From Nemertoderma westbladi (taxonomy: Eukaryota > Animalia > Xenacoelomorpha): a DNA stretch of 64,000 nt. The DNA lies in the NCBI GenBank assembly GCA_032718475.1, contig JAUCBJ010008828.1:1-64000 (forward strand), written 5' to 3'. Under the pieces are notes generated by a model that was not told where the DNA came from, ran no database searches, and saw only the letters and a list, made by a program, of their open reading frames with translations. The translations under genes and the position numbers were made by a program. This document shows positions 16,564 through 57,307 of the stretch, piece by piece. Each line of letters opens with the position of its first letter. Positions within the stretch are counted from its first letter, which is position 1.

Positions 16564-16899
16564 TGCACTGCATCTGATGAATATCAGAACATGTTTTTGT
16601 GACGCTAGAGGGCGTATTAGGATGTTCGAATCATTCATTGTACACTTGTGGGGACGTCGGGACTCTAGAGGCTATAGCTAGCTACAGTAGATCACTACAA
16701 TTTGTACTGATAAACATATAGATGTATTTATACTTATATAATATATTATTTTAATGGGAAATAATAATAATGCACTAAATTTAGCTCACGCTAAACCACC
16801 GAACTCATTTTACTGAGCAAAAACGCACGCGATGGATCAAAACGACATACAGCTACTAGCTCAGGCCATCAAAATCCTACAAAGCCCGTCACTGATCCA

Positions 16900-17710: not shown

Positions 17711-17740
17711 GGTGGCAACAGTTCCTTTGCAATATATACT

Positions 17741-19861
17741 TTGCAAGTAAATGACAGCTATGAGTACTTTGAACGTGAAATTGAAACGGTGTTTAATGCA
17801 CATGTACCACTAAAAAGAAAGTTAATTAAAAGAAACAAAAATTTGAAACAAAACGAGTGGTATACAAAAGAATTGGAAGACCTAAAATGTGACAAGGATA
17901 CAAAATTATATAAATTTCGATCGACAAAAACCACCGAAGATTATAAAATATTCAAATTAGCTAGAAATAAATATAACAACCTAAATAGCCGATTGAAAAA
18001 TATGCATATCAAGTCAAAATTTGTAAATGAAAAATCAGTTCGCTCCCGTTGGTCTATAATTAATTCAATATTAAATAAAAACAAAAATAACAATCCAGTT
18101 GAACAAATTCAAAATGCAAAGGGCTATAAAATCACGGATCCGATAAAAATTGCAAATATATTCAATCGCGTATTCGAAAAATTAGGTGAATTTAAAAAAT
18201 TTACAAATAAAATGATATCAAAACAGCCAAATAGTAGTTATATAGCAACACAAAATGCAGACGATACATTTGCTTTTAAAAACATATCTGAATTTGAAAT
18301 AATGAATATTCTCGAAAAACTTAATACAAATAAACCAAACGGGCCGTCTAACTTACCACCACGTATAATTAAATTAGCGAGATCAAAAATTATATTTCCA
18401 TTTACATCAATAATAAATAAATGCCTCACAACATCTACTTTTCCTGATAAATTAAAAGCCGCATATGTTACACCTGTATTTAAAGACGGAGACAGACTGA
18501 AACCTACTAACTACAGGCCGATTGCAGTTATATCTACCTTCAGTAAAATATTTGAAACTGTGATACTGAACCAAATGCTTAATTACGTTACAGACGAGAA
18601 AATAATTAATCGTAGACAATTTGGATTTAGAAAACGTTATTCTACTACTGATGCATTAATATACACAACAGAAACCTGGCGATCATCATTAGACAAAAAT
18701 AAATATGTCGCAGTTGCAGCTCTAGACTTAGCGAAAGCATTTAATTCCATTAATCATAAAATATTGCTTGAAAAATTAACTAGATTGGGGTTTCACAGTA
18801 CATCGATTCGATTACTAAATAGTTACTTAACCGACAGAAAACAAAAAGTAAAGATAAATAATGTTTTTTCGGAATGGGTCAAAATTAACAGGGGGGTACC
18901 ACAGGGAACACAGCTAGGGCCGCTTTTGTACCTACTATACGCTAACGATATTGCACTACTAAAAGATCTAGACCTAGTACAATACGCCGATGACACATTG
19001 ATATTTTACACCCATTCAGACCCACAAACTGCAACTAAAATTCTCTCAGAGCAAATAACCGCAGTAGAAAAGGAATTGACAAAAAATCAGCTCATGTTAA
19101 ATACAGGTAAAACTAAATTTATACTAATATCACCAAAACAACGAAATGACAATGTAAATACAATCACCCTTGATACAGCAACATGTAAAATAGAACAATG
19201 TACAACATTTAAATATCTAGGAGTAATTTTGGACAATCAGCTTAATTGGAAAGAACAGATAAAAAAGGCTTCACATAAAATGGCGCTAGCCATATCTTGC
19301 CTACGACGAATAAAAGGCCAGCTTCCACGCAAGACTAAGCTAAATATATATAAGGCTACTGTACTTCCCTTTCACAACTACTGTTCACAATTGCTAATAC
19401 CATTACATGACCTACACGGATACAAGCAGTTACTGTACGATCTTGAAAAACAACAGAATTACGCACTACGACTAGTATTTGGGAGGCAAATAAGAGACAG
19501 TACTGGGACCGAACTACGACAACTTGCTAAATTGCCGAATCTACACTCATTGCGTGAATTCAATGGACTCAACTTTTTATTTAAATATATACACAATCTA
19601 TCTATTCCATTTCAATCCTTAACACTACCATTTCTAAATAATATACACACAGACCCACAACTACTAAATGCTCGTACCAAAATTATAAAAATACCAAGGA
19701 CCTATAACAGCTACGGACACAACAGTTTATTAATTTCACTTATCAAATTATGGAACTCAACTGATATCAAACTGAAACAAATTCAATCTCATAAGGAATA
19801 CTACACAACAACAAAGAAAAAGTATTACGAACTACACATGCGCTATGATGAAATCACATAA
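17741..19861 (+). CDS. Reverse transcriptase ORF2 (5'-truncated, no endonuclease) of a CR1/L2-group LINE; the element extends to an A-rich tail at ~20217
   Basis: NYRPIAV, QFGFRK, DLAKAF, GVPQGTQLGPLLYLLYAND, YADD, KYLGVILD motifs. 3' UTR ends in AATAAA/(AAAT)n. Confidence 0.9.
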   Translation: MQVNDSYEYFEREIETVFNAHVPLKRKLIKRNKNLKQNEWYTKELEDLKCDKDTKLYKFRSTKTTEDYKIFKLARNKYNNLNSRLKNMHIKSKFVNEKSVRSRWSIINSILNKNKNNNPVEQIQNAKGYKITDPIKIANIFNRVFEKLGEFKKFTNKMISKQPNSSYIATQNADDTFAFKNISEFEIMNILEKLNTNKPNGPSNLPPRIIKLARSKIIFPFTSIINKCLTTSTFPDKLKAAYVTPVFKDGDRLKPTNYRPIAVISTFSKIFETVILNQMLNYVTDEKIINRRQFGFRKRYSTTDALIYTTETWRSSLDKNKYVAVAALDLAKAFNSINHKILLEKLTRLGFHSTSIRLLNSYLTDRKQKVKINNVFSEWVKINRGVPQGTQLGPLLYLLYANDIALLKDLDLVQYADDTLIFYTHSDPQTATKILSEQITAVEKELTKNQLMLNTGKTKFILISPKQRNDNVNTITLDTATCKIEQCTTFKYLGVILDNQLNWKEQIKKASHKMALAISCLRRIKGQLPRKTKLNIYKATVLPFHNYCSQLLIPLHDLHGYKQLLYDLEKQQNYALRLVFGRQIRDSTGTELRQLAKLPNLHSLREFNGLNFLFKYIHNLSIPFQSLTLPFLNNIHTDPQLLNARTKIIKIPRTYNSYGHNSLLISLIKLWNSTDIKLKQIQSHKEYYTTTKKKYYELHMRYDEIT

Positions 19862-24134: not shown

Positions 24135-27075
24135 CTTTATTCTTATTTATTATTTATTTATTTACCGCAGGCAACATATGGAAAATATAATATATTATAA
24201 TCGCACAATCAGCCCATATCGTCTACCTACGCTACAGCACAATAATTAAGTATGTAATTGATTATGTATGCGTGTACTTAGTAATACTAATAATTCGCTA
24301 AATTAACAGATTTTCGGAATTGCACATTTCAAAAATTCTAGAACTATGCAACGCGGTGTAACAATATACAGCATTTACAATATAATTACTGGAACATTTT
24401 ATCCTACGAAATAAACTTTGAATTGATTTGAAACGTAAATGAATGAAGCACGGAATATTGTTGCAACCAAAGAAATATGACATACTAGAACCTACAGAGA
24501 TGAAAAATAGCTTTCTTGCTGCATTATTGTATGCTACCCTTAACCGATTATAGACAACAGATGAGTAGTTCCTACGTGACCACAGAGCATTACAATATAG
24601 TGGAGTTATAAATGCTAGAAATAAACGAACTTTCACTGCAACGGTACAGGTACTAAATTTTCTAAACAACGTATTTGTACGGGCGTACATACTACCTATT
24701 TGTTTCTTAATGTCAAGATCATCATCACGTGATTCGTGTATTATATGACCCAAATATGTAAATTTATCAGTTCTAGAAATAACACGCTGGTATAAATATA
24801 TTGGAGCTATTGTACTTAAGTTACAAGATTTCGGGCACAAAAACATTACCTTAGTCTTCTTTAAATTAAACATTATAGAATGTGAAATTGCATAATCCTG
24901 ACACACATTAACTAACTTTTGTAAACCTATAAGTGAATTTGACATTAAACCAATGTCGTCTGCATACATTGTATGATTAATCCTTTGACCATTAATTGAA
25001 CAACCTACGTTAGCCATTATAAGTTTACGGGATAAGTCGTCCATGTAAACATTAAATAAATAACCAGATAATATTCCGCCTTGCTTCACGCCATTAAACA
25101 CTGCAAACGTTCTGGAATATGTAGCACCCCAGCGCACTTGTAATGTTTGATGTCGGTACCAAAAGGCTAAAATACGCACCAAATAGAGTGGTACATTCCT
25201 ATTTATTAATTTCTGAAAAAGTTTATCGTGCTCTATTCTGTCAAATGCTTTAGATGCATCCAAGAAACAAATATACATAGGAGAATCATTATCTAAGTAA
25301 TAATCAATAACCTCTTTCAGAGTATATACACAAAGCTCGGTACCGCTATTTGCCTTATATGAGAATTGGTGATCGCTACAAATTAAGAAAGACTGCATTC
25401 TAGATAATAAAATACGTTCAAATATCTTACTTATTGCTGTTGAAATAGCAACGGGCCGATAGTTTGATTTCTCATCTATAGCACCATTTTTATCTTTAAT
25501 GATTGGTACAATAATACTATGAATAATGGAGCTTGGTAAATAACCATGTACCATACAAGAACTGAAAATAAAGCTAATAAAATATTTAGCCTACTACTAT
25601 TACTGTAAATGAAATGTTCCCCAGTCCCCCATGAAATGTCCTATCGCTTTACCTAATTTTAAATTAGCTATTGCACATCCTACTTCTGCTGCACTTATAT
25701 TCATATCAGTTGTGTACAGTACTTTATTTAGTTGTTCGTATATGCTACTGCCAACACAAAACTCAGTTACTCCATTAGTTTTGTTACAATTAAACAATAT
25801 TTCAAAATCGTTTGCAAAATTACTACAAATTTCTCGTTCACCGGTCGCACCACTAACAACATTGGGTAAGGGTATTTTGCACGAAATATCTTTCTTCACG
25901 GATTTCCAAAATGAATTAAAGTCCTTAGAAAGGTTCGATTGTGCTAATTTATCGACCCGTTTTTGATTTTCGGAACGTTTACATTGTCTAAAAATACGTT
26001 TAAAATTTGCTCTGGCGTTAAGGTAGTCATCATGGTGAAGACTACCCTGCCGAGGACAGCCGGCATCTTTCCACTGTATAAAAGTATCCCGAGATTCCTC
26101 ATAGAGCGCTTTAACATGATCATTCCAACCAGGAACGTTGTAACTATTGTTTGAATTCATGTTAATATTATTACTCGGTATGGACGTTGACGCACTTTCT
26201 ACTAAAGCACCTACTATACGGTCCCACAAACTACTAAGATTGTTCACATGTGATTCATCATTACAGTTTATGGAGGTACATGTGAAGGCCTCGGGTATTT
26301 ATATATTATTCAATGAATCATTAAGTCTACGGTAATTATCGAGTTGCACCGGCCGAGCTGCAGTCCAAATAAACTTAGTAGGATTTGTAATCATAGTATC
26401 GCTTTTATCCGTAGTATTTACCGTAGCGTTAACATTAATATCAATAGTAAATCTTAAAGGTATATGATCAATGGTAGCTAGATCATAAATAACATCGACA
26501 TCCTTAATTAAAGAGTCGGACGTGGTGGTGCTGACAATATGGTCTAACCAAGAGGTGGTACTAAATGCTGCACTCACAATTGTAAACGTATGTGGTGGTA
26601 ATCGTTTTACATCGGACAAAATAATTCCGCAATTAGCGCACCAATCAGATAACTCTCTATAAAATGATTTTTGTGGCGAGGCATTAAAATCACCGACTAT
26701 ACAGCATTTCACAGTTGGGGCATTATCAATTATTGATTGTATGCGTCCTAGGTACTCTAAGTACAAATCCAAATTGTCAGATGATTCGAAAGGTAAATAT
26801 AAATTCAATATTAAAATTTTCGATTTATCCGATAGGTTTACATAAAATCCCATTATTCGTTCATCCGCTATATTTAAATACTCAATAGAAGATGAAATTT
26901 CTTCCCTTACCATAACCGCCAGACCTCCATGTGGACGGCCGCGCAATAATCCATTGGATAAATCTACTGAGATTCGCCTCGACAGATAAACTTGTCATCT
27001 ATTTTCGAGAGGAAACTTAATTCCTGTTTCGGAAGTAGATGCTCTTGTAACAAAACAATATCCGAAATATCACAC
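24135..27075 (-). mobile_element. LINE, RTEX-like, disrupted ORF2 (APE endonuclease + RT)
   Basis: Three fragments (26299-26946, 25600-26247, 24298-25554) with GRPHGG, GDFNA, WLDH, DHIP, NYRPVAI, DASKAFD, GVKQGGILS, YADD. (AAT/AAAT)n tail at ~24135-24165. Confidence 0.88.
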
Positions 27076-29026: not shown

Positions 29027-29555
29027 TGTGACGGGATCCAGGAGGGATCTCGATTTATCCGGTATTTTAGTTTACGCGTCCCCGCCGTGTATAAAGAGTA
29101 AACGAAACAGTGAATGAGTTCTGATGTTCGGTGTATAATAACTGATGGGTATAAGATATAGATATAGATATGTGGAAGGCGGGATATGGTAACTAAAAGT
29201 CCCGTGCTCCCCTATCTAAACTAACTAACCTATGCTAGTACTACTGCATTGAGATAACTGAATTACTGATTAATAGGTTACTGATTATATTGCACGGTTG
29301 GCCTAATTACTACCTAATCGATGCCTTGCCCCCCTCTGATTGGTTGATACCCTTGTTGGCGCCCCGTGGAGTGTTCCCGTTCACTCCACCTGTACTCTCT
29401 GGGTTAGGGGTTTGGCCCCTGACCCTTTATTGTGTGCTTCCTTCCCACTCTTATTGGGATGGCACGAGTTGGTTAATTGCCCAATCTCGTGGCTCCCAAT
29501 ATTGCTTATCGGCTTATAACTTTATGGGGTGTTAGCGGGATTGAGTAAGCTAACA
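29027..29555 (-). repeat. 3' LTR of BEL/Pao element 1
   Basis: Direct repeat of 42442-42971, preceded on the sense strand by the purine tract GGGGGGGAG. Confidence 0.97.
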
Positions 29556-32802: not shown

Positions 32803-33289
32803 TCCGAACGTTCACTCGCTCACCTGCAAGGTGGTGCCTTACCAAGGCGCAATACAGATGAGTGATGTATCTAGGATGTTCTGTACAGTTCGATAATGGC
32901 CTACTTCTACTTAACTGCGCCTTTTAACCTAAATTATTCCTAATTAATTTTGAAGCTAGTAAATACACCCTAATTTCGATTTCTGTCCGTTACTTTTATT
33001 ATGTTCTAGAATAGCTTCCCTTGTGTTGCCACTATTTTACAATTTTCAGCCCTATTCTATTTATTTATTTATTTACTTTGATTCTACTGTCCTACTACTT
33101 GCTACTGCCTATGGATTACTCTATTCTCTAATCCACATTCTGGCCTACTCTGTGGGTCTATGCAGTACAGCAGTATACGTCGTGTGGCCACACGATTTAC
33201 CCAGCTGTACTCATATGCCCCCCTCTCGCTACTAACTGCTAACTAATATCTATATCTTATATACCCCTTTTACTTCTTACTTTCTCTCT

Positions 33290-33895
33290 TCTAACTAACG
33301 GTACTACGTACCCTCTAACTCTCTAACTAACTAACGGTACTACGTACCTTCTAACTCTCCTCTAACTATCGGTACTACGTACCCTCTAACTCTCTAACTA
33401 ATGGTACTACGTACCCTCTAACTCTCTAACTAACTATCGGTACTGCGTACCCTCTAACTCTCTAACTAACTATCGGTACTACGTACCCTCTAACTCTCTA
33501 ACTAACTATCGGTACTACGTACCCCCTAACTCTTCTAACTAACTATCGGTACTACGTACCCTCTAACTCTTTAACTAACTAACTAACGGTACTTACGTAC
33601 CCTCTAACTAACTCTCTAACTGGCGGTACTACGTACCTCCTAACTAACTAACTAACTAACGGTACTTACGTACCCTCTAACTAACTCTCTAACTGGCGGT
33701 ACTACGTACCTCCTAACTAACTAACTAACTAACGGTACTTACGTACCCTCTAACTAACTCTCTAACTAACTAGCGGTACCACGTACCCTCTAACTAACTT
33801 TCTAACTGGCGGTACTACGTACCTCCTAACTAACTAATTAACTAGGTACTACGTACCTTCTTACTAACTCTCTGCCTACTAACTGCGTACCTACC
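33290..33895. repeat. Internal tandem array of BEL element 1 (GGTACTACGTACC core + (CTAA/CTCT)n spacer, about 15 units)
   Basis: Seen directly between the pol stop and the extra ORF. The core is a short hairpin (GGTAC-TAC-GTACC). Confidence 0.9.
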
Positions 33896-40793: not shown

Positions 40794-42375
40794 CAGTTTT
40801 GAGTCTGTCGTGCGGTCCCTGTCAGTGGGGTATCAATAAATGTATCTACGGCCCCCGGCTCCCCAAAAATACTCGAGCCGGCCCCGCTTTCAGACGGCGA
40901 CGCTCGCACCAGTTGCAGCTCGTGCGCCCGTCTAATCTTATCTTCCGCAAGCACACTCTGGCGTCTCTTTAATTCCTTGTGCTCTCGTTCAGCCTCTGCC
41001 ATTCTCCTCTCACACTCCTGGGTGTCCCGGGCGGCCGACTCCGCTACACTCCTAATGCTCTCCCTTCGTCTCACCTCGCGCTCCTTGCGTTCCTTTTCCC
41101 TTCTCGCCTCATGTTCCTTGCGTTCCTTTTCCCTTCTCGCCTCATGTTCCTTGCGTTCCTTTTCCCTTCTCGCCTCATGTTCCTTGCGTTCCTTTTCCCT
41201 CCTCGCCTCATGTTCCTTGTGTTCCGCCTCACGCTCTTTGCGTTCCCTATCCTCCCTCGCCTCACGCTCCCTACACTCCTTTTCCTCTATTTCCTCACAC
41301 TCCCTAAGGCTTCTCAAAGCCCTTTCGGCCCTCTCTCCGGTTTCTCTAATCAATGCCGCTTCCCTCGCTAACCGCACTCTCCCCTCCTCTAACCGTTCCT
41401 CCATTTCCCTCTGACCTTGTTCTACCATGTTGAGACGGTATGCGGCACCTATCTCTCTCACCACTCTTTCTTTCGCGGAGGATGTAGCAGACTTATCGGT
41501 TACGACGGACCCCCTCCGCCTTCCCGACCTACTAACTTTCCCCCGCCTCCCGGAACTTTCTCCGACCGACGAGCTGAATCCTCGGGGTTAACCTCGGATT
41601 CGCCCCCCTCGGGTCCCCTCCAACCCACTAATTTTACTCCCCGGGCATCGACCAAGTATGGCCCTATGTACACTGGCGCTACGCTAGGTTCCATACTCCC
41701 ACACTCCCATAGTTCAAACAGTTCGCCGGCAACCCCTTTTGCTCTCTCCTCGGCTAGTTCTCTCTGCCCAAAACGTATTAGGTAATTAAAGTGTCTATCC
41801 GACTCACCTAGTCGCTTTCTCAGTCTCACCTCGTCTACCTTCGCCCCTTCCTTCTTGGCGTCCTTCATTAGCTTCCGGGTCGCGTTGTAGGCCCGTCGAA
41901 GTCGCTCTGAAACCCCGACGTCCTCGTCGCCGACCTCTCCTCCGTCCCTCCGGGTTCGACGTCGTACCGGCGGCTCCACCGTCGCCGTTCCGGTGGGCCG
42001 TCCGTCGCCCTCGGCCTGTAGCTGGCCGGCGACATCGGTACCGATGTCTCCTCCGTCTCTCTGCGTCCGGGGCCGCACCGTCGGCCCCACCGTCGCCGTT
42101 TCGGCGGGCCGCTCGTCGCCCTCGGCCTGTGGCTGGCCGGCGACACCGGTGCGTCGACCCCCGTCCCGTGTCGACTCGTCTCCGTCTCCCTCCGTCCCGC
42201 TCTCTCTTTCTCTCGGTTCGACCTCGGGTTCCAGGCCCCCCTCGTCCTGAACTGCCGGATGACCCGTTACCGATGGGTCCGGCGTTGTGGGCCTGTATCG
42301 CCTGGTTGCGGCCTCGCGGATCGTTAGGTCTTCGTCCGGGGTCCGCGTCGGTGTCGTGTCACCTGACTGACTCAT
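40742..42375 (-). CDS. N-terminal gag extension of BEL element 1 in two fragments (42375-41500, 41464-40742), each offset -1 from the next
   Basis: ATG at 42375, 66 nt after the LTR. Charged/coiled-coil sequence with KERKEHEARRE repeats. The second break lies over a 13-nt G run (40765-40777). Confidence 0.65.
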
Positions 42376-42441
42376 CCTCTTCTGCAGATTTCGGTGGCTA
42401 GTGGTTGAGTTTTATCTGGGGCGGCAGCTGGTTTTAGTTAC

Positions 42442-42971
42442 TGTGACGGGATCCAGGAGGGATCCCGATTTATCCGGTATTTTAGTTTACGCGTCCCCGC
42501 CGTGTATAAAGAGTAAACGAAACAGTGAATGAGTTCTGATGTTCGGTGTATAATAACTGATGGGTATAAGATATAGATATAGATATGTGGAAGGCGGGAT
42601 ACGGTAACTAAAAGTCCCGTGCTCCCCTATCTAAACTAACTAACCTATGCTAGCACTACTGCACTTGAGATAACTGAATTACTGATTAATAGGTTACTGA
42701 TTATATTGCACGGTTGGCCTAATTACTACCTAATCGATGCCTTGCCCCCCTCTGATTGGTTGATACCCTTGTTGGCGCCCCGTGGAGTGTTCCCGTTCAC
42801 TCCACCTGTACTCTCTGGGTTAGGGGTTTGGCCCCTGACCCTTTATTGTGTGCTTCCTTCCCACTCTTATTGGGATGGCACGAGTTGGTTAATTGCCCAA
42901 TCTCGTGGCTCCCAATATTGCTTATCGGCTTATAACTTTATGGGGTGTTAGCGGGATTGAATAAGCTAACA
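42442..42971 (-). repeat. 5' LTR of BEL/Pao element 1
   Basis: Sense TGTTAGC...CCGTCACA, followed by GTAACTAAAA rather than a TGG-type PBS. Confidence 0.97.
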
Positions 42972-45756
42972 CATATTATCTTATGTCAGGGCCCCAACCG
43001 CAGGTTATCGTGTTCGGAGAACCCGATTCTGTGCTCGGCCACGGAACTAGTCTTGCGCACGCCTTTATCTATCATCAGCCTTCGACAGGGTTAACTTCTC
43101 AAGATTAAACAGTATCCTATGGAATCAAACCTAAAGGTTGTAGGGTACCCCAACAATTAAAAAAAAGATTCTTATGACATACTTCCTATCAGGCTCGTTA
43201 TACCTCTGTGTAAGAAAAATACAGCAGGAAAACCGTATTCCTATAGAACTTGGATTATGACAGGGAAGTTGGCTATCACTGTTCTTCAGTAACGTCTATA
43301 TCGCATAACTATTCGATTACAAAGTTAACAGTAATTATTGAGTTCATGTGGGAAGCCTTTTATTCGGTATAATTAGTTATGGGGATGATATCATATTGTA
43401 ATCGCTAATCTCAAGACAGACGACAGCTCAGTCAGTCAGCAAGAAAGTCAATAGCTACTATGTGTTATACTTACTTAATAACTTAATCTTATAAAACAAA
43501 AGGACTCACTATCTTCTCATAAATAAAAAAGGGCGCAGTGCAACTGATATAATGTCTATGGGTTCCAGGGCATAAAATCACCCATAGATTTATTTTGGAA
43601 ATGTTTGTCCAGGTCGCGAGCGAGGCAGGTGTGGTAGAAGTAGATAGGTACATTTATACAACTGTCTTCAAACGAAATTGCTTTGAGATATTCCAGTCAA
43701 CTGACGAAGACAAATCCAACGATTATATATACAAGAATATTTGAACAATCACAATTATTGACAACCCACAAATTATTGAACAACCAGGAGCCATAAACAA
43801 GAACCAGGTTAAGAAAGATAGAAAATCTTAAAGTGGCCGACTACATCAGCCATGAGAAGTACGTGCAAGGTAAAATTGAAGCATCACAAACTGCTCACAT
43901 AAAGCAACAGTCAATACTCTTGCCTTACAAAATTAGCTATCTGGAAGGGAATATTGTGCTAAGGGGCGCCTAATAGCTGATAGTCCTGAAGAACATGTTT
44001 GGAATTGGACATATAGAACCAAGAAGTCCACCAGAATTAAAGTGATTTATACATAAACTAAACTACGAGATGATAGTGTCGTATAAATTTAATTAAAGTT
44101 CTTCCTTTATATTACTCTATCTACCTTATCATATTCGCTGTACTGCATAATTTTATTAATTTAGAGTAGAGGGATATGAGAGAATGTTGGACGTTATAAT
44201 TCCATCATAGTTGTTGTAGCTATTGATTCGGTCTTCAAGAAATCCCGTGTATATTGGTATCTGACTACAGTGTTCTATAGAAGCTGTAGATAAACTCAGC
44301 ATGATACGAATAACATATAGATAGCACGCTATGAACGACCAAATGTGTTGGATTAAATATATAATTATGTAAAAATAACATTTCGTACCATTCATTTATT
44401 TTTGAAACTGAGTGAGAGTGCATAATGTAGTTATCCCTAGGTCTAGCGAAGATGTTTTTGAGAAACAAAAATATGAAGATATTTTCGTAACAAAAACTGT
44501 AAATATTGTTTCAATATTCTGAATCCGGTGTAAAATTTGATTAGACGGACTACTGAAGCCACAATTGTCGCTTCATTTACTCATTGAGAACTTTAAACCT
44601 CAGAATTACACCTCAGAAGTATTTATTTTGAGTAAAATACCGGTTAAATTTCTTTAGAAATTGTCGTTTCATTATTGATTATAAATTTAGGATATTATAT
44701 ATAAATTATATATATTTTTTAAGAGAATCAGCACCCCATAGCGGGGTAAATATATTCTTATTGTTACTGCACAAAACTGAATTGATAAGGATATTGGAAA
44801 CAGCAGTAACACAGTAATAATACCATATATGTACGGTGCATTATAAAGTTAATAAAATAATTTAGAGTAAAAGGCCATGCAATAAAGTTATTAAAGATTA
44901 TTATTTATAAATATATTAAATAACAACAAAAGAAGATTATTGTTTGTTTTATTGCATGCTCATGCAGCTAGAATTATATTTAATTTTAAATTAAATGCGG
45001 GGGGGGGGGGGGGTGGCGGGGGGTGTACACAATTTTTGGACAACTCTTCGATTTATCACTCCCAGCGTTTCAAATATTTTTGGTTTTGGCTATAATTTGG
45101 AATAAAGTTACCTAAGATGCTATTCTACATTGATAGCTCAGAAAAATTTTATTTTTGGCTATTTAATATTATTTAAAGCTACAGTTAACAATGAAAAAAC
45201 GTGGTTGATAAGATGAGTTTTTTTATAAATAGTATTAAATGTTATTAACTAAAAATTTCAAAAGGTTGTCTATACTTTTATGCAGGGTTGCTATGTAGAC
45301 AGACATTTGTAGAAGTAGTAGGGTTATGAAGTTGACAATTTCCCAAAAAAATATTTGGCGATAATAGATCGTTCATTATGCATAGTAATAGTAATTTCAA
45401 TAGGTCTCCCTAAATGTAAATTGTTATAATTTGAAAAAGTAAAAGAGCTATTAAATACCCCCCCCCCCCCCCCCCCCCCCCACCCCCCTTAATTAGTTAT
45501 AACTTAGTATGGAATGGTGATATAGAATTACAATGAATTGCAGAAGTTACCAGAATTACAGAAGCCACCTGGACTAACAAATATATATAATAACATCATT
45601 GTAAAAAATAATATTGTTTAATTTAATTCTTCAACATTTTAACTGGTAAATTTGTATCAAATAATAACATCGATCTACACAACCTCGCTACTAACTAACT
45701 ACTAACTACTAACATCGATTTAATCAACTTCCATGGATAATGAGTGATTCATTAAA

Positions 45757-46463
45757 ATGATAATCATTATTGTTCTGCTTGTTACATTCCACACGGTAGC
45801 CACTCAGCTGAGTAACAACACAACCTCGCAGAAGACCACCACTGGTACACAACTCAGAATACCGGTCACACATGCCCCGAAGGTAGAAATTGGACACTGT
45901 CCTCAAAAAACATCGAGTTGCAAGAGATTTATGAAGCCAGGCTGCATAAGTTTATGAAAGCCAACGATTTAATTAAACCGGTTATCGACTGGTATGGCTG
46001 CCACACTTGTTCACTCATATCTGTGGTATTCAGTGCGTGGTCCGCTGAATACAAGGCTGATATTACATTCGAAGTAGAAGATTCATGGTGCTACTATGAA
46101 GAATATAAAGGCAACTGTCTACCTATGCCTGAAACAGGTTGTCTCTATTTTGCGAACGTGGTACTTCCAGAACATAAACCTGACCCAGACGACCCAAATG
46201 CTGTGAATCTCTTTGGGTTGATATCATATTACAACTACCTCCAGCTGGCACTCACTGTAACACACGAGACTTGCCAGTCTCAGTGCTGCAACGATGCGGC
46301 TTGCCCAGCTCCCGTATGGACTCACGAGAAAACCTCTACATCAGAAACCACTACCGAATACGTGCCGTTCACCTGGGGAAACGGATCGGCTAATGTCAAC
46401 CAAATGGTGACGTCTCATCTGGCTTGGGTCATCATTGTTGCCATAGTTCTCAGAGCGTTCTAG
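45757..46463 (+). CDS. Secreted, probably GPI-anchored Ly6/uPAR (quiver-like) cysteine-rich protein, copy 1; split over two frames (-1)
   Basis: Signal-like MIIIIVLLVTFHTVATQ, CHTC start, CQSQCCN end motif, Thr-rich stalk, GNGS plus hydrophobic tail, AATAAA at ~46494. Confidence 0.7.
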
Positions 46464-46691
46464 AATATAGGCCTAACTGAAGCTAAAACTTCAATAAATA
46501 AACAATCCATTTGGATCCACATATTCTAGGAACAAAAACCGTCTAGAAATCACTTCTAGAAATATTTATCGGAAATTCTTTATGGTGATTGATTCCAATT
46601 TCAAAGGTTGTGGGTTCGATTTATTATCCGGCAAAATTATGTTTATTATATATCTTCAATAATTATTTCAGGGGGGGGGGGGGGGGGGGGG

Positions 46692-48061
46692 GGTAGCACC
46701 CCCAAACAGAACCTCACATTTTGTTATCTCTGAACCCTAAAATTGGATGAAAATTATTTTTTGTGATACTAAACATCGTCTGGGGTGAAGTTTATGAATA
46801 GCCAAAGGAAATATTTTTAATCTGGCCTCAAAATGGCACTGCAATTGTGCCAAAAGTGCCTTTTGCGCCAAACACAATTTCAGAATATAAGTTCAGAAGA
46901 ATCCTGCAACCAATTCTTATATTTTTGGCCCTTTGATCTAAAGAGGCTCCGGAGCGTTTGAGGCAAAATTTCTTCAGAATTTATTGTCAAAGGTATTCTG
47001 AATAAGTGTACCAAATTTCAACTCATTTATAGTTTTAGGAACAATTTTCACATTTTTATTTAGTCAACAATAACGAAATTTTTCATCATTGCTAAAAATA
47101 TATCTAATAAAACAACTTTGTAGTATTTTTAGTCATATACAGTATGTACCGTGAGAGCCTTTTTGATGAAAAGGACCTTATTCAATTGTAATAACTATTT
47201 ACATCATTGTGTGTAAAGTAGCACTTTGCAGCGTTATGACCCGAGTTAATTTATGTACCGAGCGAGCGCAGCGCGGGAGGTTTACATAAATAACCAAGGG
47301 TCTTTAACGCTGAAAAGTGACCTTTGCAAGCAATTATGTATGTAATTTTGTTACATTATGTCAACTTATCACCGTTCGGTATTTGAAGAAAAGATTTTAA
47401 GGATACTCATTTATACATTTTAATCATGTACTATATCGAATATAAGTTAAATTTATTAACAGGTGCACTGGTACACAGTATTAATTATACATTTAAATCT
47501 AATTAAAGTTTATTGGAAGTTATCTCCTGCATGGATGTGATAAATCATTAATCCATCTTGACTATAGTCGACTGTAGCAAACTTAGTCACCGTCTTGTGT
47601 CCGTTCAGTTTTACTGAACACTGTCGTCACTTTCTTTCCTATTTTACTGTCTTCTATTGGACGTTTCGGCATAATGGAAAACAATATACTTTAAACAATT
47701 ATTTTTACATACAGTAGCTAGTCCTGTAGTCCCTTCACTGCCAACTGGATAATAAAGCAGCACTCATTAACATAAATGGAAATAAAAAATTCTGGAAAAC
47801 GGTAATGTTGTTTCCATGTCATTGATTACTTTGCAGCGTTACGAGAAATTCACCAGAACGCTGTAAAGTTGACATAAATGTAACAAAATATCGTGCTGCT
47901 AGAAGGCTTTTCAAAAATCAGACTAGCTCTTACGTTTTGGGTAATAACTTGAGTTTGAGAAACGATATGAGAAAACTGCTTGAGATTTGAAATCTCCATT
48001 AAATTCTGCACATAATAGGATTCAAAAATGTCGAAAATTATCGAATTAGGGGGGTGCTACC
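46692..48061. mobile_element. Non-autonomous DNA transposon with GGTAGCACCCCC...GGGGGTGCTACC ends and a nested MITE-like insert (~47200-47885); duplicated at ~55285-56590
   Basis: 12-bp terminal inverted match, no ORF, internal inverted CTTTGCAGCGTT/AACGCTG blocks. Confidence 0.55.
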
Positions 48062-48449
48062 ATGACCTACTACACCAACTGTATTATCACAATTCTGTTG
48101 GGCACAGCTTTGCAAAGTCGGCAATGACGTCCATGTGGGATCGAACTGGTGACCTTAGAGTTGGAAGTCTGACGCTCTAGTCTCTTTCCAACGACATGTT
48201 ATAGTAGGTCATCGTGCTACCTCCCCTCCCTCTCTTAAGTATTTAGCATAAACTCTCTAATAATAACTCAAATTTTCCGAAGCACACCCATTACGGTTCG
48301 CTGTTAACTCAGTACACATCCTTTATACTTTCCAATAAGGTTTCTCTAATTATTCAATCAATTTTGTTGATATTAAACATTCTCATTTAGCGATATTCTA
48401 TATTACTTTTCATTATGTTATGTTAATATCCCATTATTTACTTAATTAA

Positions 48450-49398
48450 TGTGACGGGATCCTGGTTGGCCTGGGATGCCCCCCCCCCCCCCCCTTTTTT
48501 TTTTTTACTTAGTGGTGCCTTTCCTACTTGCTGCCGCTCTAGAAGACTGACTGGCCGTAGGCCTGATAAAACTAGAGTTATGAGATTGCCGATAATATTA
48601 TAATAGTCTCAATAGTGTAGTTTACCGGTACAATATACTGTAGCACAAAGTCAGTAGTGTGGTATACGACATGCAGTGAAAACGGTTCACCTTCTTTACA
48701 GAGTCAATTGCCAACTGGTTACATAATGCACGTGATCGTTAATATAGGGAAAAATATATTGCCTATCTATCACATCTTTATAGTCCCATTGGCCTGTGGA
48801 TTTAATGTCTTATTATATTAGATATTATACTGTATTATAATACAGTATAAATTAATTAGTATTTTCAGTCTTTTTCGAGGTGATACGAGGTTGATTGCCA
48901 ATCAACCTCGTATCACCCCAATAACCGGGGCGACAAACCCCAAAGGGACACACACAGCGGGGGTCAGAGGTTACACCTCCGGGAGGGAGAGAGTGACAGC
49001 AGCCGGGGGAAACACTCCCAGAGAGATGGGAGGGCGAGAATTGGGTTATTAGCCAATGGGGGGGAGGCATCCACTGAGTAATGTAATACGGCCAACCAGT
49101 GCAATATATTACCAGTTATTGTTCCTCATTTATTTCACTCAGTTAGTCAGTTTAGTTAGGACAGAACGGTGACTTCTATTACCGTCCACTGCCGCCATCA
49201 TTCACTTATACTTTACCGGTACATTATTTCTTCACTCCAACAACTGTGTCTATGCTTATTCTATATCAGTCATATTATTCTATATCAGTCGACAAGATCA
49301 GAACTCTCAATCCAACTATAATAACTCTTTTCACTCACACGGCGGGGACGCGTAAATAGAACCACCGGGATAAATCGGGATTCTCGGATCCCGTCACA
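48450..49398 (+). mobile_element. Solo-LTR-like element related to BEL element 1 LTR (partial second copy at 56957-57307)
   Basis: TGTGACGGGATCC...GGATCCCGTCACA ends. The 3' ~500 bp aligns by eye to the sense strand of the element 1 LTR (GGCCAACC.GTGCAATATA, ACACGGCGGGGACGCGTAAA, GGATAAATCGGGAT). Confidence 0.8.
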
Positions 49399-50140: not shown

Positions 50141-53100
50141 CTACTACTAGGTCGAGCGAACTCGGACAGTGGAAATGAGATCCTTCCAGGCTTCCCGATT
50201 CTCCATAGTTGTCGCAATTTCGTTTCTCTCAAGTTCAGTATCCCTTTCAAGTTGATCTATATATGTTATGGCAGGTCGTCCACGACTACGCTTTCCATGA
50301 GTTGGTTGCCAGAGAAGTAGATCTGGTATGACCTCGTCTTTACTTCGCCAGCAGTGCCCACTGAATCTTAATCTGCGTTCACGGAGGGTGGTTGATACAG
50401 GTGGTATTGTACCATAAAGCTCGGCGTTTGTCATGTGTTGTCTCCAGCTGATGTTTAGGGCTGCCCTTAGTAGTCTTGTGTAGCAACCATCAATTCGTTG
50501 TTCAAGTGATTTAGTCAGTGTCCAGGTCTCACCGCCGTATAAAAATACACTTTCCACTGTGGCTCGAAAGAACTTAGTCTTCAGGTGCCTGGAGAGATCT
50601 GATTTCCAGATGGTATCCATTTTTGATAGAGCTACCCAAGCCTTTGCTTTCCTAACTTCTATGTCCTTTTTGCTACTCTCTATCCATGATCCAAGGTACT
50701 GGAAGTCATCGACCTTCCTTAGTTGATTATTATCAATGGTTGTCAAGTTTCCATCAACATTAAAGGTCATGAATTCGGTCTTGGTAGCATTTATATGTAA
50801 TCCAACCTCCTTAGCAGCCCTCTCCACTTTATTTAGTAGAAGCTGTGCATCTGCTAGCGTATTAGAGAGCAGGGCGATGTCATCCGCAAAGTCGGTGTCT
50901 GTGACTGTAGTTGCCGGATATCTACTACTTCTGCGTTCTTGAAGTGTGAATCCCAGATCTTCACCCTTTGTGGCCGTCCTCATTGCGTAATCCAGCACAA
51001 TTACAAATAGTAATGGTGCTAATGTGTCACCTTGCAGTACGCCAGCCAGGATTGAGAAAAACTCAGTTTCACCATCTGGTGAGAGTACCTGCGCTTCTGT
51101 GTCACAATATAACAATCCAATGCCAGCAACAATTACTTCTGGTATTCCATAAGCTCTTAGGATTTCAAGCATTTTACCTCTATGGATGGAGTCGAATGCC
51201 TTCTTGAAGTCCACAAAAGTCATGACTGCGGGGAGATTCTTTGACTTAATTCCTTCAATCAGTCTCCGTAGTGCAAGTATCTGAGCTATTGTTGATCTAC
51301 TTGGTCGAAATCCGTTTTGGCTCTTACGCAGTAGTTTCTCTATGTGAGGCCTAATCCTATATAGAATCATTTTATTGTATATTTTGGCAGCTACCACAAG
51401 CAGACAGATCCCACGATAGTTTGTTGGTATGCCGAGGTCTCCTTTCTTGGGGAGAGGCTTTAGTTGACCTTTAGTCCAAATTGGTGGTGGCTTTTCCCCT
51501 TTTAACATCCGGTTGCAAACATTCAATAATGGTCTATTTAGCACTCCGGTTTTCCATACCTCCGCTGGGATTTCATCTAATCCACTCGCTTTATTATTGG
51601 ACATGCTTTTAATGCTTCTTTGGAGTTCGGCAGGTGTGAAGTCCCCTGTTTCTATAGGTAGTGTCTTGTCATATATTTTCCTTGTAGGGCTGACCTCGAT
51701 GTTTGGTGGCTGCCCAAGCAAGTTGCTGAAGTGATTTTTCCACTTCCCAACACGTTCTTCAGGACTATCGGCTTTGAGGCGCCCCTTTGCACAACTTTTC
51801 CGACCAGATACCTCATTTACAGTTTGCCAGGTAAGTCTTGATTGTTGCTGTATGTGAGCAGTTGTAATTGCTTCAGTTTTATCCTGTATGTACTTTTCCT
51901 GGCTGATGTTGTAGGCCAATTTAAGATCGTCCTTAGCTTTCTCAACCTTGTTAATGTTTTCGGTTGTTGGTTGTTCGGTTTTAACTTTGTAGGCTATCTT
52001 AAGATCTTCTCTCTTACAAGTAACCTCAGAGTTTTGCCATGGCACATACTGTTTTCGTTTAGGTTTCTGGGGGATATGCCTCTTAGCTGATTCCTTGTGG
52101 GCTGTTATTATATTCTGGTATATTGAATCGGTGGATTGGTCTTCATCCATTGACTGAAGTGCTTCAAAGCGGTTTCGAACTTCTACTGTATAAGCATCCT
52201 TTACAGCATTGTCAGTTCTGAGTTTCTCCCAGTCATAGTTGATTTGCTTGCTTGTCCTGGGTTTGCTGGCTCTCAAACTGAGTCTGATCTCTGCAGTCAC
52301 AATTCTGTGGTCCGAACCAATTAGGTTGAACGAGCTGTATGCCTCGCAGTTGATCATGCTATTTCGCCACTTTTTGTTTATAAGGATGTAATCCAGTTGT
52401 GCTTTGGTTCCATTAGGGTATTGAAAGGTCCATAGCTTCCCCTTACTCTTTTCGAATGTGTTGTTTGTTGGTATCAATTCACATTCTTCCATTAGGTCTA
52501 AAAGTAAGTACCCATTTCTGTTAGAACTGGTGTTATAGGTGTAACCCTTGATGTCTTCTGGGCCAATTTGCGCATTCAGGTCACCAGCAATGACTTTAAC
52601 ATTGTGTTTCGGGATGTCCTTAATAAGTCCAGTCAGTTCTTCATAAAACTTGACTGCTTGTTCTGGCTCTGATGCATTGGTTGGACTGTAGCAACATATA
52701 ACTGTTGTCTTGGGATTCCCATCAAATGTTGCGATCATAACCCTGGAATTTATAGATTCGATGTTGTTTAGGGTCTTAAGTGCAAATGGGCTTAGCAGAA
52801 TTCCTACTCCACCAATTGATGCATTGGCCGAGTTTCTTACTGCTGAGCTTGTTACTAACGTCCATCCATTTCCAATGTCATTGTACTTCATGGCAGTGTC
52901 TTCATGACAAATCCGATGTTCTTGGATGCAGATGATGTCGATGTTATATTCCATTGCCAGAGCGACCATGTCACCCTGTTTGCTCTGTGCTTTCAGCGTG
53001 CGTGCGTTCATTGTAGCAATCTTTAGTGTCTTTTTACATTTCAACAGGTTGGTTCTTCTTTCTTCTCTGTCTTCTGTTCCAGTAGCCAATTTATCGACCC

Positions 53101-53502
53101 CAGCCTGGTGTACCACTGAGGGACGCGGTCCTTGTTGACCCGGGCGACGACCGAGCCGGTATTTCTCCTGGAGGGTTCTCATACTCATATCTTTCAGTTG
53201 CGGGAGTAAACCGCTTGTGGTCGCAACTCCTACAAGCGTCTTCGCAGTAGGCCGCCGTTGGTTGATTACCTTCCGCCGACCTTGTCAGCATGTCTAGCCG
53301 TTGGTTGATTACCTTCCGCCTATTCATGGCCTACAGCCCTGCTGCCGACTGTAGGGGTCCATTTGTTACACCCTGAACCAAGTGTGCCTCCTGGGTTAGG
53401 TTACCTAACACTGGTAGAGGAGCATCCAGTATAGACAGGGCGGGGCTTGTATCATCTCTAATGCAGATGCGTATCAAGCCTTTGCCTTCAATTTTGCCTT
53501 TT
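50141..53502 (-). mobile_element. Full-length RTE-clade LINE with 11-bp TSD
   Basis: TTTAGAGTAAA duplicated at 50130-50140 and 53503-53513. Empty site visible in the paralog at ~44861. (TAG)3 tail. Confidence 0.96.
50147..53188 (-). CDS. RTE ORF: APE endonuclease + reverse transcriptase, intact (1013 aa)
   Basis: ATMNARTL, IQEHR, YSPT, GDLNA, LDYI, SDH; QNGFRP, DFKKAFD, GVLQGDTLAP, DFADD, FQYLGS. Confidence 0.96.
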   Translation of the reverse strand: MSMRTLQEKYRLGRRPGQQGPRPSVVHQAGVDKLATGTEDREERRTNLLKCKKTLKIATMNARTLKAQSKQGDMVALAMEYNIDIICIQEHRICHEDTAMKYNDIGNGWTLVTSSAVRNSANASIGGVGILLSPFALKTLNNIESINSRVMIATFDGNPKTTVICCYSPTNASEPEQAVKFYEELTGLIKDIPKHNVKVIAGDLNAQIGPEDIKGYTYNTSSNRNGYLLLDLMEECELIPTNNTFEKSKGKLWTFQYPNGTKAQLDYILINKKWRNSMINCEAYSSFNLIGSDHRIVTAEIRLSLRASKPRTSKQINYDWEKLRTDNAVKDAYTVEVRNRFEALQSMDEDQSTDSIYQNIITAHKESAKRHIPQKPKRKQYVPWQNSEVTCKREDLKIAYKVKTEQPTTENINKVEKAKDDLKLAYNISQEKYIQDKTEAITTAHIQQQSRLTWQTVNEVSGRKSCAKGRLKADSPEERVGKWKNHFSNLLGQPPNIEVSPTRKIYDKTLPIETGDFTPAELQRSIKSMSNNKASGLDEIPAEVWKTGVLNRPLLNVCNRMLKGEKPPPIWTKGQLKPLPKKGDLGIPTNYRGICLLVVAAKIYNKMILYRIRPHIEKLLRKSQNGFRPSRSTIAQILALRRLIEGIKSKNLPAVMTFVDFKKAFDSIHRGKMLEILRAYGIPEVIVAGIGLLYCDTEAQVLSPDGETEFFSILAGVLQGDTLAPLLFVIVLDYAMRTATKGEDLGFTLQERRSSRYPATTVTDTDFADDIALLSNTLADAQLLLNKVERAAKEVGLHINATKTEFMTFNVDGNLTTIDNNQLRKVDDFQYLGSWIESSKKDIEVRKAKAWVALSKMDTIWKSDLSRHLKTKFFRATVESVFLYGGETWTLTKSLEQRIDGCYTRLLRAALNISWRQHMTNAELYGTIPPVSTTLRERRLRFSGHCWRSKDEVIPDLLLWQPTHGKRSRGRPAITYIDQLERDTELERNEIATTMENREAWKDLISTVRVRST

Positions 53503-54345
53503 TTTAGAGTAAAAGGCCATGCAATAAAGTTATTAAAGATTATTATTTATAAATATATTAAATAACAACAAAAGAAGACTATTGTTTGTTTTATTGCATG
53601 CTCAGGCAGCTAGAATTATATTTAATTTTAAATTAAATGCGGGGGGGGGGGGGGGGGGGGGGTGTACACCATTTTTGGACAACTCTTCGATTTATCACTG
53701 CCAGCGTTTCAAATTTTTTTGGTTTTGGCTATAATTTGGAATAAAGTTACCTAAGATGCTATTCTACATGATAGCTCAGAAAAATTTTATTTTTGGCTAT
53801 TTATATTATTTAAAGCTACAATTAACAATGAAAAAACGTGGTTGCTAAGAGGAGTTTTTTTATAAATAGTATTAAATGTTATTAACTAAAAATTTCAAAA
53901 AGTTGTCTATACTTTTATGCAGGGTTGCTATGTAGACAGACATTTGTAGAAGTAGTAGGGTTATGAAGTTGACAATTTCCCAAAAAAATATTTGGCGATA
54001 ATAGATCGTTCATTATGCATAGTAATAGTAATTTCAATAGGTCTCCCTTAATGGAGATAGCTATAACTTGAAAAAGTAAAAGAGCTATTAAATAGCCCCC
54101 CCCCCCCCGACCCCCCTTAATTAGTTATAACTGAGTATGGAATGGTGATATAGAATTACAATGAATTGCAGAAGTTACCAGAATTACAGAAGCCACCTGG
54201 ACTAACAATTATATAATAACATCATTGTAAAAAATAATATTGTTTAATTTAATTCTTCAACATTTTAACTGGTAAATTTGTATCAAATAATGAACTACTA
54301 ACATCGATTTAATCCACTTCCATGGATAATGAGTGATTCATTAAA

Positions 54346-55052
54346 ATGATAATCATTATTGTTCTGCTTGTTACATTCCACACGGTAGCCACTCAGCTGA
54401 GTAACAACACAACCTCGCAGAAGACCACCACTGGTACACAACTCAGAATACCGGTCACACATGCCCCGAAGGTAGAAATTGGACACTGTCCTCAAAAAAC
54501 ATCGAGTTGCAAGAGATTTATGAAGCCAGGCTGCATAAGTTTATGAAAGCCAACGATTTAATTAAACCGGTTATCGACTGGTATGGCTGCCACACTTGTT
54601 CACTCATATCTGTGGTATTCAGTGCGTGGTCCGCTGAATACAAGGCTGATATTACATTCGAAGTAGAAGATTCATGGTGCTACTATGAAGAATATAAAGG
54701 CAACTGTCTACCTATGCCTGAAACAGGTTGTCTCTATTTTGCGAACGTGGTACTTCCAGAACATAAACCTGACCCAGACGACCCAAATGCTGTGAATCTC
54801 TTTGGGTTGATATCATATTACAACTACCTCCAGCTGGCACTCACTGTAACACACGAGACTTGCCAGTCTCAGTGCTGCAACGATGCGGCTTGCCCAGCTC
54901 CCGTATGGACTCACGAGAAAACCTCTACATCAGAAACCACAACCGAATACGTGCCGTTCACCTGGGGAAACGGATCGGCTAATGTCAACCAAATGGTGAC
55001 GTCTCACCTGGCTTGGGTCATCATTGTTGCCATAGTTCTCAGAGCGTTCTAG
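54346..55052 (+). CDS. Ly6/uPAR-like GPI-anchored protein, copy 2; same frame split
   Basis: Translation identical to copy 1 in both frames. Confidence 0.7.
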
Positions 55053-57307
55053 AATATAGGCCTACCTGAAGCTAAAACTTCAATAAATAAACAATCCATT
55101 TGGATCCTACATATTCTAGGAACAAAAACCGTCTAGAAATCACTTCTAGAAATATTTATCGGAAATTCTTTATGGTGATTGATTCCAATTTCAAAGGTTG
55201 TGGGTTCGATTTATTATCCGGCAAAATATGTTTATTATATATCTTCAATAATTATTTCAGGGGTGGGGGGGGGGGGGGGGGGGGGTAGCACCCCCAAACA
55301 GAACCTCACATTTTGTTGTCTCTGAACCCTAAAATTGGATGAAAATTATTTTTTGTGATACTAAACATCGTCTGGGGTGAAGTTTATGAATAGCCAAAGG
55401 AAATATTTTTAATCTGGCCTCAAAATGGCACTGCAATTGTGCCAAAAGTGCCTTTTGCGCCAAACACAATTTCAGAATATAAGTTCAGAAGAATCCTGCA
55501 ACCAATTCTTATATTTTTGGCCCTTTGATCTAAAGAGGCTCCGGAGCGTTTGAGGCAAAATTTGTTCAGAATTTATTGTCAAAGGTATTTTGAATAAGTG
55601 TACCAAATTTCAACTCATTTATAGTTTTAGGAACAATTTTCACATTTTTCTTTAGTCAACAATAACGAAATTTTTCATCATTGCTAAAAATATATCTAAT
55701 AAAACAACTTTGTAGTATTTTTAGTCATATACAGTATGTACCGTGAGAGCCTTTTTGATGAAAAGGACCTTATTCAATTGTAATAACTATTTACATCATT
55801 GTGTGTAAAGTAGCACTTTGCAGCGTTATGACCCGAGTTTATTTATGTACCGAGCGAGCGCAGCGAGGGAGGTTTACATAAATAACCAAGGGTCTTTAAC
55901 GCTGAAAAGTGAGATTTGCAAGCAATTATGTATGTAATTTTGTTACATTACTGTATGTCAACTTATCAGCGTTGGGTATTTTGAAGAAAAGATTTTAAGG
56001 ATACTCATTTATACATTTTAATCATGTACTATATCGAATATAAGTGAAATTTATTAACAGGTACACGGTATTAATTATACATTTAAATCGAATTAAAGTT
56101 TATTGGAAGTTATCTCCTGCATAGTTGTGATAAATCATTAATCCATCTTGACTATAGTCGACTGTAGCATACTTAGTCACTGTCTTGTGTCCGTTCAGTT
56201 TTACTGAACACTGTCTTCACTTTCTTTCCTATTTTAGTGTCTTCTATTGGACGTTTCGCCATAATGGAATACAATACACGTTAAACAATTATTATTTACA
56301 TTCAGTAGCTAGTCCTGTAGTCCCTTCACTGCAAACTGGATAATAAAGCAGCACTCATTAATATAAATGGAAATAAAAAATTCTGGAATACGGTAATTTA
56401 AGTTGTTTCCATGTCATTGATTACTTTGCAGCGTTCCGTCCTATAGGCCGCAACGAGAAACTCACCAGAACGCTGTTAAGTTGACATATATGTAACAAAA
56501 TATCGTGCTGCTAGAAGGCTTGTCAAAAATCAGACCAGCTCTTACGTTTTGGGTAATAACTTGAGTTTGAGAAACGATGAGAAAACTGCTACCATGACCT
56601 ACTACACCAACTGTATTATCACAATTCTGTTGGGCACAGCTTTGCATTGGAAGTCTGACGAACTGGTGACCTTAGAGTTGGAAGTCTGACGCTCTAGTCT
56701 CTTTCCAACGACATGTTATAGTAGGTCATCGTGCTACCTCCCCTCCCTCTCTTAAGTATTTAGCATAAACTCTCTAACTCAAATTTTCCGAAGCACACCC
56801 ATTACGGTTCGCTGTTAACTCAGTACACATCCTTTATACTTTCCAATAAGGTTTCTCTCATTATTCAATCAATTTTGTTGATATTAAACATTCTCATTTG
56901 GCGATATTCTATATTACTTTTCATTATGTTATGTTAATATCCTATTATTTACTTAAGGTGACGGGATCCTGGTTGGCCTGGGATGTCCCCCCCCCCCTTT
57001 TTTTTTTTTTTTTTTACTTAGTGGTGCCTTTCCTACTTGCTGCCGCTGTAGAAGACTGACTGGCCGTAGGCCTGATAAAACTAGAGTTATGAGATTGCCG
57101 ATATTATTATAATAGTCTCAATAGTGTAGTTTACCGGTACAATATACTGTAGCACAAAGTCAGTAGTGTGGTATACGGCATGCAGTGAAAACGGTTCCCC
57201 TTCTTTACAGAGTCAATTGCCAACTGGTTACATAATGCACGTGATCGTTAATATAGGGAAAAATATATTGCCTATCTATCATATCTATACATAGTCCCAT
57301 TGGCCTG

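Follow-up and report, generated by a model that had tools for sequence, protein, structure and literature searches.

INTRODUCTION

LTR retrotransposons of the Osser, Bryco and Bianca type are primed by half-tRNAs, their primer-binding site (PBS) complementing a tRNA that is cut in the anticodon stem. A nematode BEL element reportedly encodes its own tRNA-like primer; a report of this was not found in our literature search. For the BEL/Pao elements in general, the ICTV profile of the Belpaoviridae gives an 18-nt PBS for tRNA-Arg or tRNA-Gly and priming by tRNA, and describes replication in this family as poorly understood (PMC8742986).

Some LTR elements of other groups are primed by their own RNA. 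According to the accessible parts of the respective papers, Tf1 uses the 11 bases at its start as primer, with RNase H cutting between bases 11 and 12 (PMC7175516), and Tf1 cDNA retains a copy of the PBS (PMC11042837); Tj1 is proposed to self-prime as Tf1 does (PMC4600332), and self-priming is predicted for Tcn1 and for the TAR lineage of copia elements (PMC6317226). No report of a self-priming BEL/Pao element turned up in our literature search, which left most subscription papers, supplements, Repbase and GyDB outside it, so prior mention is possible. In their accessible text, the Sinbad paper (PMC554778) and a BEL/Pao survey (PMC3118150) make no mention of PBS, primer binding, tRNA or priming, and the corresponding parts of PMC3601003, PMC6934838 and PMC4558846 hold nothing on BEL/Pao priming.

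We describe a BEL/Pao element in a window of 64,000 nt, by which we mean the whole stretch of DNA that was analysed. Self-priming of some form is very probable for this element. Our preferred reading, with a probability of about two in three, is that it primes reverse transcription with an internal piece cut from its own RNA, the predicted 3′ end of that piece being the LTR segment 42613-42604.

STRUCTURE AND CLASSIFICATION OF THE ELEMENT

The element is 13.9 kb long and lies on the minus strand; the LTR-PBS junction discussed here belongs to its 5′ end (Table 1). Its LTRs differ by only 4 substitutions and 1 indel (~99% identity), so the insertion is young. Domains of the open gag-pol frame follow the order DUF1759, aspartyl protease, RT (YVDD), Peptidase_A17, H2C2, integrase core and DUF5641; in a Pfam search of the 2275-aa frame, Peptidase_A17, which is the Pao RNase H region, scored E 1.8e-39 and DUF5641 E 4.2e-24. 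The open frame includes the RNase H region. Among the matches listed, all of 120 homologues contain PF05380 and the best are 30-39% identical.

Table 1. Coordinates of the element, its proposed priming features and a related solo LTR in the window
Feature	Position	Strand	Remarks
5′ LTR	42442..42971	-	530 nt, TGT...ACA
Candidate promoter	42672..42759	-	CCAAT 42759, TATAA 42705, initiator-like TCAGTT 42677-42672
Exact 10-nt PBS complement, predicted 3′ end of self-primer	42604..42613	-	Sequence match
5′ arm of R-U5 helix	42593..42603	-	Directly after predicted cut; predicted folds and duplex test
U5 'guide' arm	42480..42501	-	Pairs across predicted primer end, leaving one base bulged
Terminal U5 hairpin, 8-bp stem	42447..42467	-	5 nt before PBS; predicted fold
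Primer-binding site GTAACTAAAA	42432..42441	-	No spacer, no TGG
Two overlapping frames, 303 and 281 aa	40742..42411	-	Acidic, coiled-coil-like, upstream of main frame
Open gag-pol frame, 2275 aa	34005..40832	-	Pfam domains and ORF list
Array of ~36-nt repeats	33279..33850	-	Between pol and extra ORF
Extra ORF, two overlapping frames, 222 and 622 aa	30267..32730	-	Three CCHC-type knuckles
Perfect 11-bp hairpin	29593-29565	-	Directly before polypurine tract
Polypurine tract GGGGGGGAG	29564-29556	-	Abuts 3′ LTR
3′ LTR	29027..29555	-	529 nt, TGT...ACA
Target duplication ATATG, 5 bp	42976-42972 and 29026-29022		Both flanks of element
Diverged solo LTR relative	48830..49398	+	Start approximate; no PBS, as host repeat follows

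By its predicted proteins the element is a BEL/Pao member far from known relatives. It resembles the Belpaoviridae (PMC8742986) in having LTRs with TG...CA ends and a target duplication, the order gag-PR-RT-RH-IN with Pao-specific Pfam domains, a polypurine tract of ~10 nt and an animal host. It departs from the profile in lacking a tRNA PBS, in its length (13.9 kb versus 4.2-10 kb) and in its extra ORF. The polyprotein gave no chromodomain match, such as a Ty3/gypsy chromovirus would have, and has Pao-type domains instead.

The two frames upstream of gag-pol gave no Pfam match and are likely the front of gag, split over separate frames in this copy. For the extra ORF no Pfam family, PDB match or homologue was found, one spurious 19-residue match apart, and its structure model reached a pLDDT of 34. 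DEDDy-like exonuclease ORFs are reported in rotifer elements in the accessible text of PMC5408684; a by-eye impression of such an exonuclease in the N-terminal part of the extra ORF found no support and was dropped.

THE PBS AND ITS COMPLEMENT IN THE LTR

The initial annotation, made from the sequence, noted that no TGG follows the 5′ LTR and that pairing with an exact 10-nt complement inside the LTR begins at the first nucleotide outside it. Both observations hold. TGG first appears 209 nt downstream from the 5′ LTR, and the PBS complement at 42613-42604 ends 162 nt before the LTR end. An 18-nt PBS fitting the 3′ end of tRNA-Arg or tRNA-Gly, of the kind in the ICTV profile, is absent; ARAGORN found no tRNA in the 64-kb window, and positions 42300-43000 gave no Rfam match. 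BEL/Pao proteins together with a PBS lacking TGG make the element an anomaly against the priming described for its family. A PBS complementary to the element's own LTR is instead what characterizes the Tf1/sushi group.

A complement of the PBS 10-mer was present in 7 of 20000 mononucleotide shuffles of the LTR, the first-order Markov expectation of a 10-nt match in the LTR is 0.001, and in a control on the internal region 15 of 12856 start points reached a match of at least 10 nt. The same 10-mer does occur once more in host DNA (28981-28972); the word is thus no rarity in this DNA, and this chance copy means that a self-match in a single element is not by itself proof.

As far as the available parts of the sources go, the element is like Tf1 and Tf2 of Schizosaccharomyces pombe, Tj1, Tcn1 and the Tf1/sushi group generally in having a PBS of 10-11 nt that matches its own LTR, no tRNA site and additional RNA structure. 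It differs from Tf1 as those sources present it in belonging to another superfamily and in a primer that is likely internal and, in most relatives, built by splicing. The plant Ty1/copia TAR lineage (Houba, Osr-1) is similar in that self-priming was predicted from PBS-LTR complementarity outside Ty3/gypsy; it is a copia lineage of plants, and the accessible text of PMC6317226 describes neither a splice-built primer nor a guide helix for it.

RELATIVES IN METAGENOMES

A scan of metagenome contigs gave 79 BEL/Pao loci with 32-38% RT identity, 30 of them with an LTR-like repeat pair. In twelve the LTR end at first looked defined; two of these, L070 and L063, were removed since the repeats they carry are not LTR ends. 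Complementarity of PBS and LTR in related families had been proposed as a check on the self-priming idea, and eight of the 10 relatives with both LTR ends independently defined have a perfect self-match of 10-15 nt, in letters different from those of the window element and beginning 2-4 nt after the LTR. In six of the eight the match spans an intron that lies within the LTR, has GT-AG borders and is 72-164 nt long (L022, L031, L039, L050, L068 and L073, with L031 and L039 being sister families); in two it is direct, as in the window element (L043, L059). L033 misses a perfect self-match by one G-U pair. L053, standing among self-matching relatives, has a TGG tRNA-type site after a 5-nt spacer (L053:55-80), so that both priming types occur within one superfamily.

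Pairings across elements reach 10 nt in 3 of 110 cases, two of which are L031 with L039, and 1 of 660 shuffled sites does so. At 22 further loci with one LTR, whose LTR end was found by scanning, 15 reach at least 10 nt (two of these repeat families already counted), compared with 5 of 22 for the reverse complement and 2 of 22 for the RT region. No relatives were found among viral contigs. On this comparison of sequences, the existence of a self-priming BEL/Pao lineage, as first suggested for this DNA, is well supported.

The primer spans a splice junction, with an exon upstream of the segment, in 18 of the 22 self-matching relatives. The remaining four match directly and are scattered over the tree, where direct types among spliced ones take 5 changes for 5 rows, a pattern that repeated loss of the intron would produce. 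The RT trees are trees of the loci found here, containing no named reference elements (BEL, Pao, Tas, Sinbad, Suzu and others), and the FastTree tree left out 13 loci with short matches. The window RT has a very long terminal branch (2.4) and at most 39% identity to its relatives. A sister relation to L041 in FastTree did not hold in a quick IQ-TREE run, which left the window element unplaced.

L041 (6885-7350) has its primer junction across a 33-nt intron, and shares with the window element the absence of a spacer, the type of polypurine tract and a bulged U5 arm. In the LTR and leader of L008, L012 and L054, alternative acceptors or a second PBS-like leader copy also match the junction. In L043 (5871-6070) the partner of the primer segment is not a U5 arm but a stretch upstream of it, with which it forms a local hairpin.

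SIBLING COPIES IN PUBLIC SEQUENCING RUNS

Sibling copies of the window element were read from contigs of public sequencing runs of three studies, in which the LTR and the junction are deeply covered. Siblings in runs of all three keep the LTR-PBS junction. Five of six sibling joints fall at 42430-42433, so the sequence diverges right after the PBS; this suggests that diverged subfamilies keep the LTR end plus ~9-11 nt and then differ.

Sibling changes listed in or beside the PBS, from 40 of the 144 rows for substitutions and 12 of the 93 for indels, occur at 42435, 42432 and 42430, and none of these rows has a change at 42441-42436. The change at 42435 (A to G in the sense strand) accounts for 2-4% of depth in X1 and X3 and 58% in X5; it is compatible with the primer only as a G-U pair, and no compensating change at 42610 is among the three substitution rows listed for the segment. 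A shorter A run at 42432 makes up 23-26% of depth in X1 and X3, and loss of one T at 42610 makes up 6-9% in three runs; no contig spans both positions, and the shorter T run cannot be linked to the shorter A run. None of the three listed rows is a substitution in the segment region 42591-42620, which is weak evidence of conservation since this table omits changes near contig ends. Within the family of the window element no two-sided change of PBS and primer was found; the only two-sided changes seen lie in the LTR-internal helix treated below.

These data bear on whether the match could be due to chance, or could stand where a normal tRNA site was deleted in this copy. The 10-nt word is AT-rich and recurs at 28981, L053 demonstrates tRNA-type sites among relatives, and the sibling evidence comes from 40 of 144 substitution rows. 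Against this, the chance expectation is ~0.001, the junction is kept by siblings in three studies with no listed change at 42441-42436, and the window element has its bulged U5 arm in common with relatives of ~35% RT identity. We regard both possibilities as very improbable and largely refuted.

The sibling variants at 42432 and 42430 also resemble the end of an exon before a possible donor at 42730. They speak for the idea that the family's true primer is spliced, with TTTTAG (42613-42608) as acceptor, and that the PBS of this copy was copied from unspliced RNA; the segment does have the form of relatives' acceptors, for example those of L041 and L052. However, the best junction matches over 8 nt (7 with strict donors) versus 10 nt for the unspliced segment, the solo LTR relative has no AG at this place and also lacks the C paired to it in its U5 arm, and four relatives scattered over the tree match directly. 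This origin of the primer seems quite improbable. A splice-built primer for the window copy was rejected, since the junction gives 7-8 nt only, and the copy was assigned to the direct type; a primer from a trans-spliced leader was dropped because the solo relative is without the AG.

THE LTR-INTERNAL HELIX AND THE U5 ARM

The initial annotation held that bases following the segment can pair with U5 GGCGGGGACG (42501-42492) and that U5 ends in a hairpin. Predicted folds contain both, the hairpin at 42467-42447. What had been missed is a competing partner for the segment itself: beyond 42501-42492, which complements the bases after the predicted cut, the U5 arm has a bulged C (42491) and then a bulged copy of the PBS (42490-42480). 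When the R-U5-PBS RNA is folded uncut, the segment is predicted to pair with this copy, continuing the R-U5 helix, and not with the PBS (-41.1 versus -39.3 kcal/mol; pairing probability ~0.90 versus ~0.05, with 0.90-0.97 for the U5 arm across folds). A cut made in silico raises the probability of PBS pairing from 0.02-0.08 to 0.68-0.81 with 10-40 nt retained upstream. For the cut 10-nt primer it is 0.78, and a cut 72-nt fragment starting at 42675 is predicted to fold on itself (PBS pairing 0.04). The cut itself is predicted between 42604 and 42603, from the PBS start and the position of the bulge.

The solo LTR relative provides a natural comparison for this helix. Its segment (49174-49182) covaries with its own U5 arm: one U-A pair has become C-G, one G-C pair has gone from the two arms together, and additions on both sides lengthen the outer stem. 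Cognate duplexes have predicted energies of -30.2 and -34.9 kcal/mol, versus -28.3 and -28.5 for the swapped ones. A helix kept through paired changes in this way is a real one. The terminal U5 stem is kept as well, with another loop. Supporting R-U5 and U5 stems, which accompany the PBS in Tf1/sushi elements, thus have counterparts here that are predicted and covarying in the solo relative; they are known from prediction, not matched stem by stem to those of Tf1. For Tf1 we found no account of a bulged second PBS copy in U5 in the accessible text of the sources, the primary structure papers being outside the comparison.

In 24 elements U5 was searched for a partner using each element's own predicted primer end; four had no match. 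The gap is 1 nt in 16 of the 20 elements with a U5 match, a count in which the cut of the solo relative is placed one nucleotide off, versus 939 of 3610 in shuffles. A strict pattern, in which the complement to the 3 nt that follow the cut is separated by 1 nt from the complement to the final 2 nt of the primer, is found in 15 of the 24, these being related elements chosen for their self-match and not independent trials, with 13 cut positions taken from scanning where no LTR end was independently defined. With gaps of 0, 2 and 3 nt the pattern is found in 2, 0 and 2 elements, and 2.1 are expected in shuffled U5. After related elements are merged the pattern stands in 12 of 17, and when the cut is slid by 1-6 nt the count falls to 1-10. 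Among the 14 full elements that have a bulged base, 11 have C at this position. The position of the bulge is thus a second feature, independent of the PBS start, that points to the same bond.

The poly(A)-type signal A(A/T)TAAA follows the cut in 11 of 23 elements, in agreement with a cut that falls inside R, and precedes the guide in all six having both; no AATAAA follows the predicted cut in the window LTR. Uncut RNA of the relatives is already predicted on the PBS in 20 of 23 cases with 14 nt upstream and 17 of 23 with 40 nt, so a two-step switch is not generally predicted. Instead of acting as a guide, the U5 arm may be a decoy or an intermediate of folding. If the element does self-prime, we give somewhat less than even odds to a role of the bulged helix in cut and handover, the weakest part of the explanation, and the full guide model is tentative and rather unlikely.

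The helix could also be the selected feature in itself, with the PBS match serving an RNA switch, dimerisation or packaging while a host RNA primes, be it a fragment of a tRNA or some other small RNA. The predicted preference of uncut RNA for the U5 arm (0.90-0.97) is in keeping with this, as are the restriction of two-sided changes within the family to the LTR-internal helix and the tRNA priming given for the family by ICTV (PMC8742986). Yet the site tracks each element's own LTR in many different sequences, even across splice junctions, which a fixed host RNA cannot explain; it begins 0-4 nt past the LTR, at the place required of a primer, and in the window element no TGG follows for 209 nt. 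We consider priming by a host RNA to have a small probability.

PROBABLE TRANSCRIPTION START AND PROPOSED PRIMING ROUTE

In the candidate promoter, whose motifs are similar to those of the solo relative, CCAAT lies 146 nt and TATAA 92 nt upstream of 42613, and the spacing between TATAA and TCAGTT is the usual one. Judged by these motifs, transcription likely starts near 42675, ~60 nt upstream of the segment. An initiator-like TTAGTT (42611) is also found inside the segment, and together with pairing that stops exactly at 42613 it could mean that transcription begins at 42613 or immediately before it and that the first ~10 bases of the RNA are the primer, strictly as in Tf1. A cut 10-nt primer, predicted on the PBS with a probability of 0.78, would moreover avoid the self-folding of the 72-nt fragment. 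Such a start is at odds with the spacing of the upstream promoter motifs, and the splice junction crossed by the primer in 18 of 22 self-matching relatives implies that their start is upstream. A start at the segment is therefore unlikely in our estimation. The early description of the element as Tf1-like is apt in outline only: motifs and relatives suggest an internal primer in place of Tf1's first 11 bases. The element works like Tf1 in outline and is not a member of the Tf1/sushi group.

Our preferred reading, an internal self-primer, would proceed as follows. Transcription would start upstream of the segment, probably near 42675, so that the primer would come from within the RNA and not from its very beginning. 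The segment would first pair with the U5 arm, whose transcription precedes that of the PBS, leaving the bulged C opposite the 42604-42603 bond. That bond would be cut, most likely by the element's RNase H by analogy with Tf1. The freed 3′ end would then move to the PBS, and extension by RT would lead directly into the end of the LTR. Strand transfer would use R downstream of the cut, and the discarded 5′ piece would be restored from the copy at the 3′ end of the RNA. Under this explanation most relatives would build the primer end by splicing an intron out of the LTR, and the family in the window would represent the intron-less form. It is possible, if doubtful, that a broad branch of BEL/Pao has a priming route distinct from both tRNA and Tf1 priming. 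Its internal primer end would come from host splicing in most families and would have become fixed in some through loss of the intron; a U5 guide helix, its single bulge marking the cut, would hold this end before the PBS receives it.

IMPLICATIONS AND OTHER FEATURES OF THE WINDOW

The feature is real; self-priming itself is known, and the BEL/Pao form with a probably internal primer is a variant of it. Should a large part of BEL/Pao self-prime, this would mean a third origin of self-priming among LTR elements, or a greater age for it than has been assumed. Such elements would be independent of host tRNA and might escape control by tRNA fragments, and splice-built primers would tie their mobility to host splicing. 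Annotation software that relies on a tRNA site would overlook these elements or label them wrongly. The bulge amounts to a single-base prediction of an RNA cut, testable with short RNAs.

Near the LTR start of the element there are hairpins at 42946-42971 and 42880-42907 (minus strand); by eye, the latter has a counterpart of ~19 bp with other letters in the solo relative (48880-48920, plus strand). Short matches to the LTR end lie behind a poly-G tract at 48442-48465 and 56948-56972 (both minus strand), within a duplicated host segment (~45143-48778 and 53780-57287). Non-LTR retrotransposon frames (RVT_1, some with endonuclease) occupy 14102-19861, 24298-26994 and 50147-53284. Direct and inverted repeats of 507 nt are found at 15048-17366, and satellite arrays with units of 29 and 25 nt at 1205-9510.
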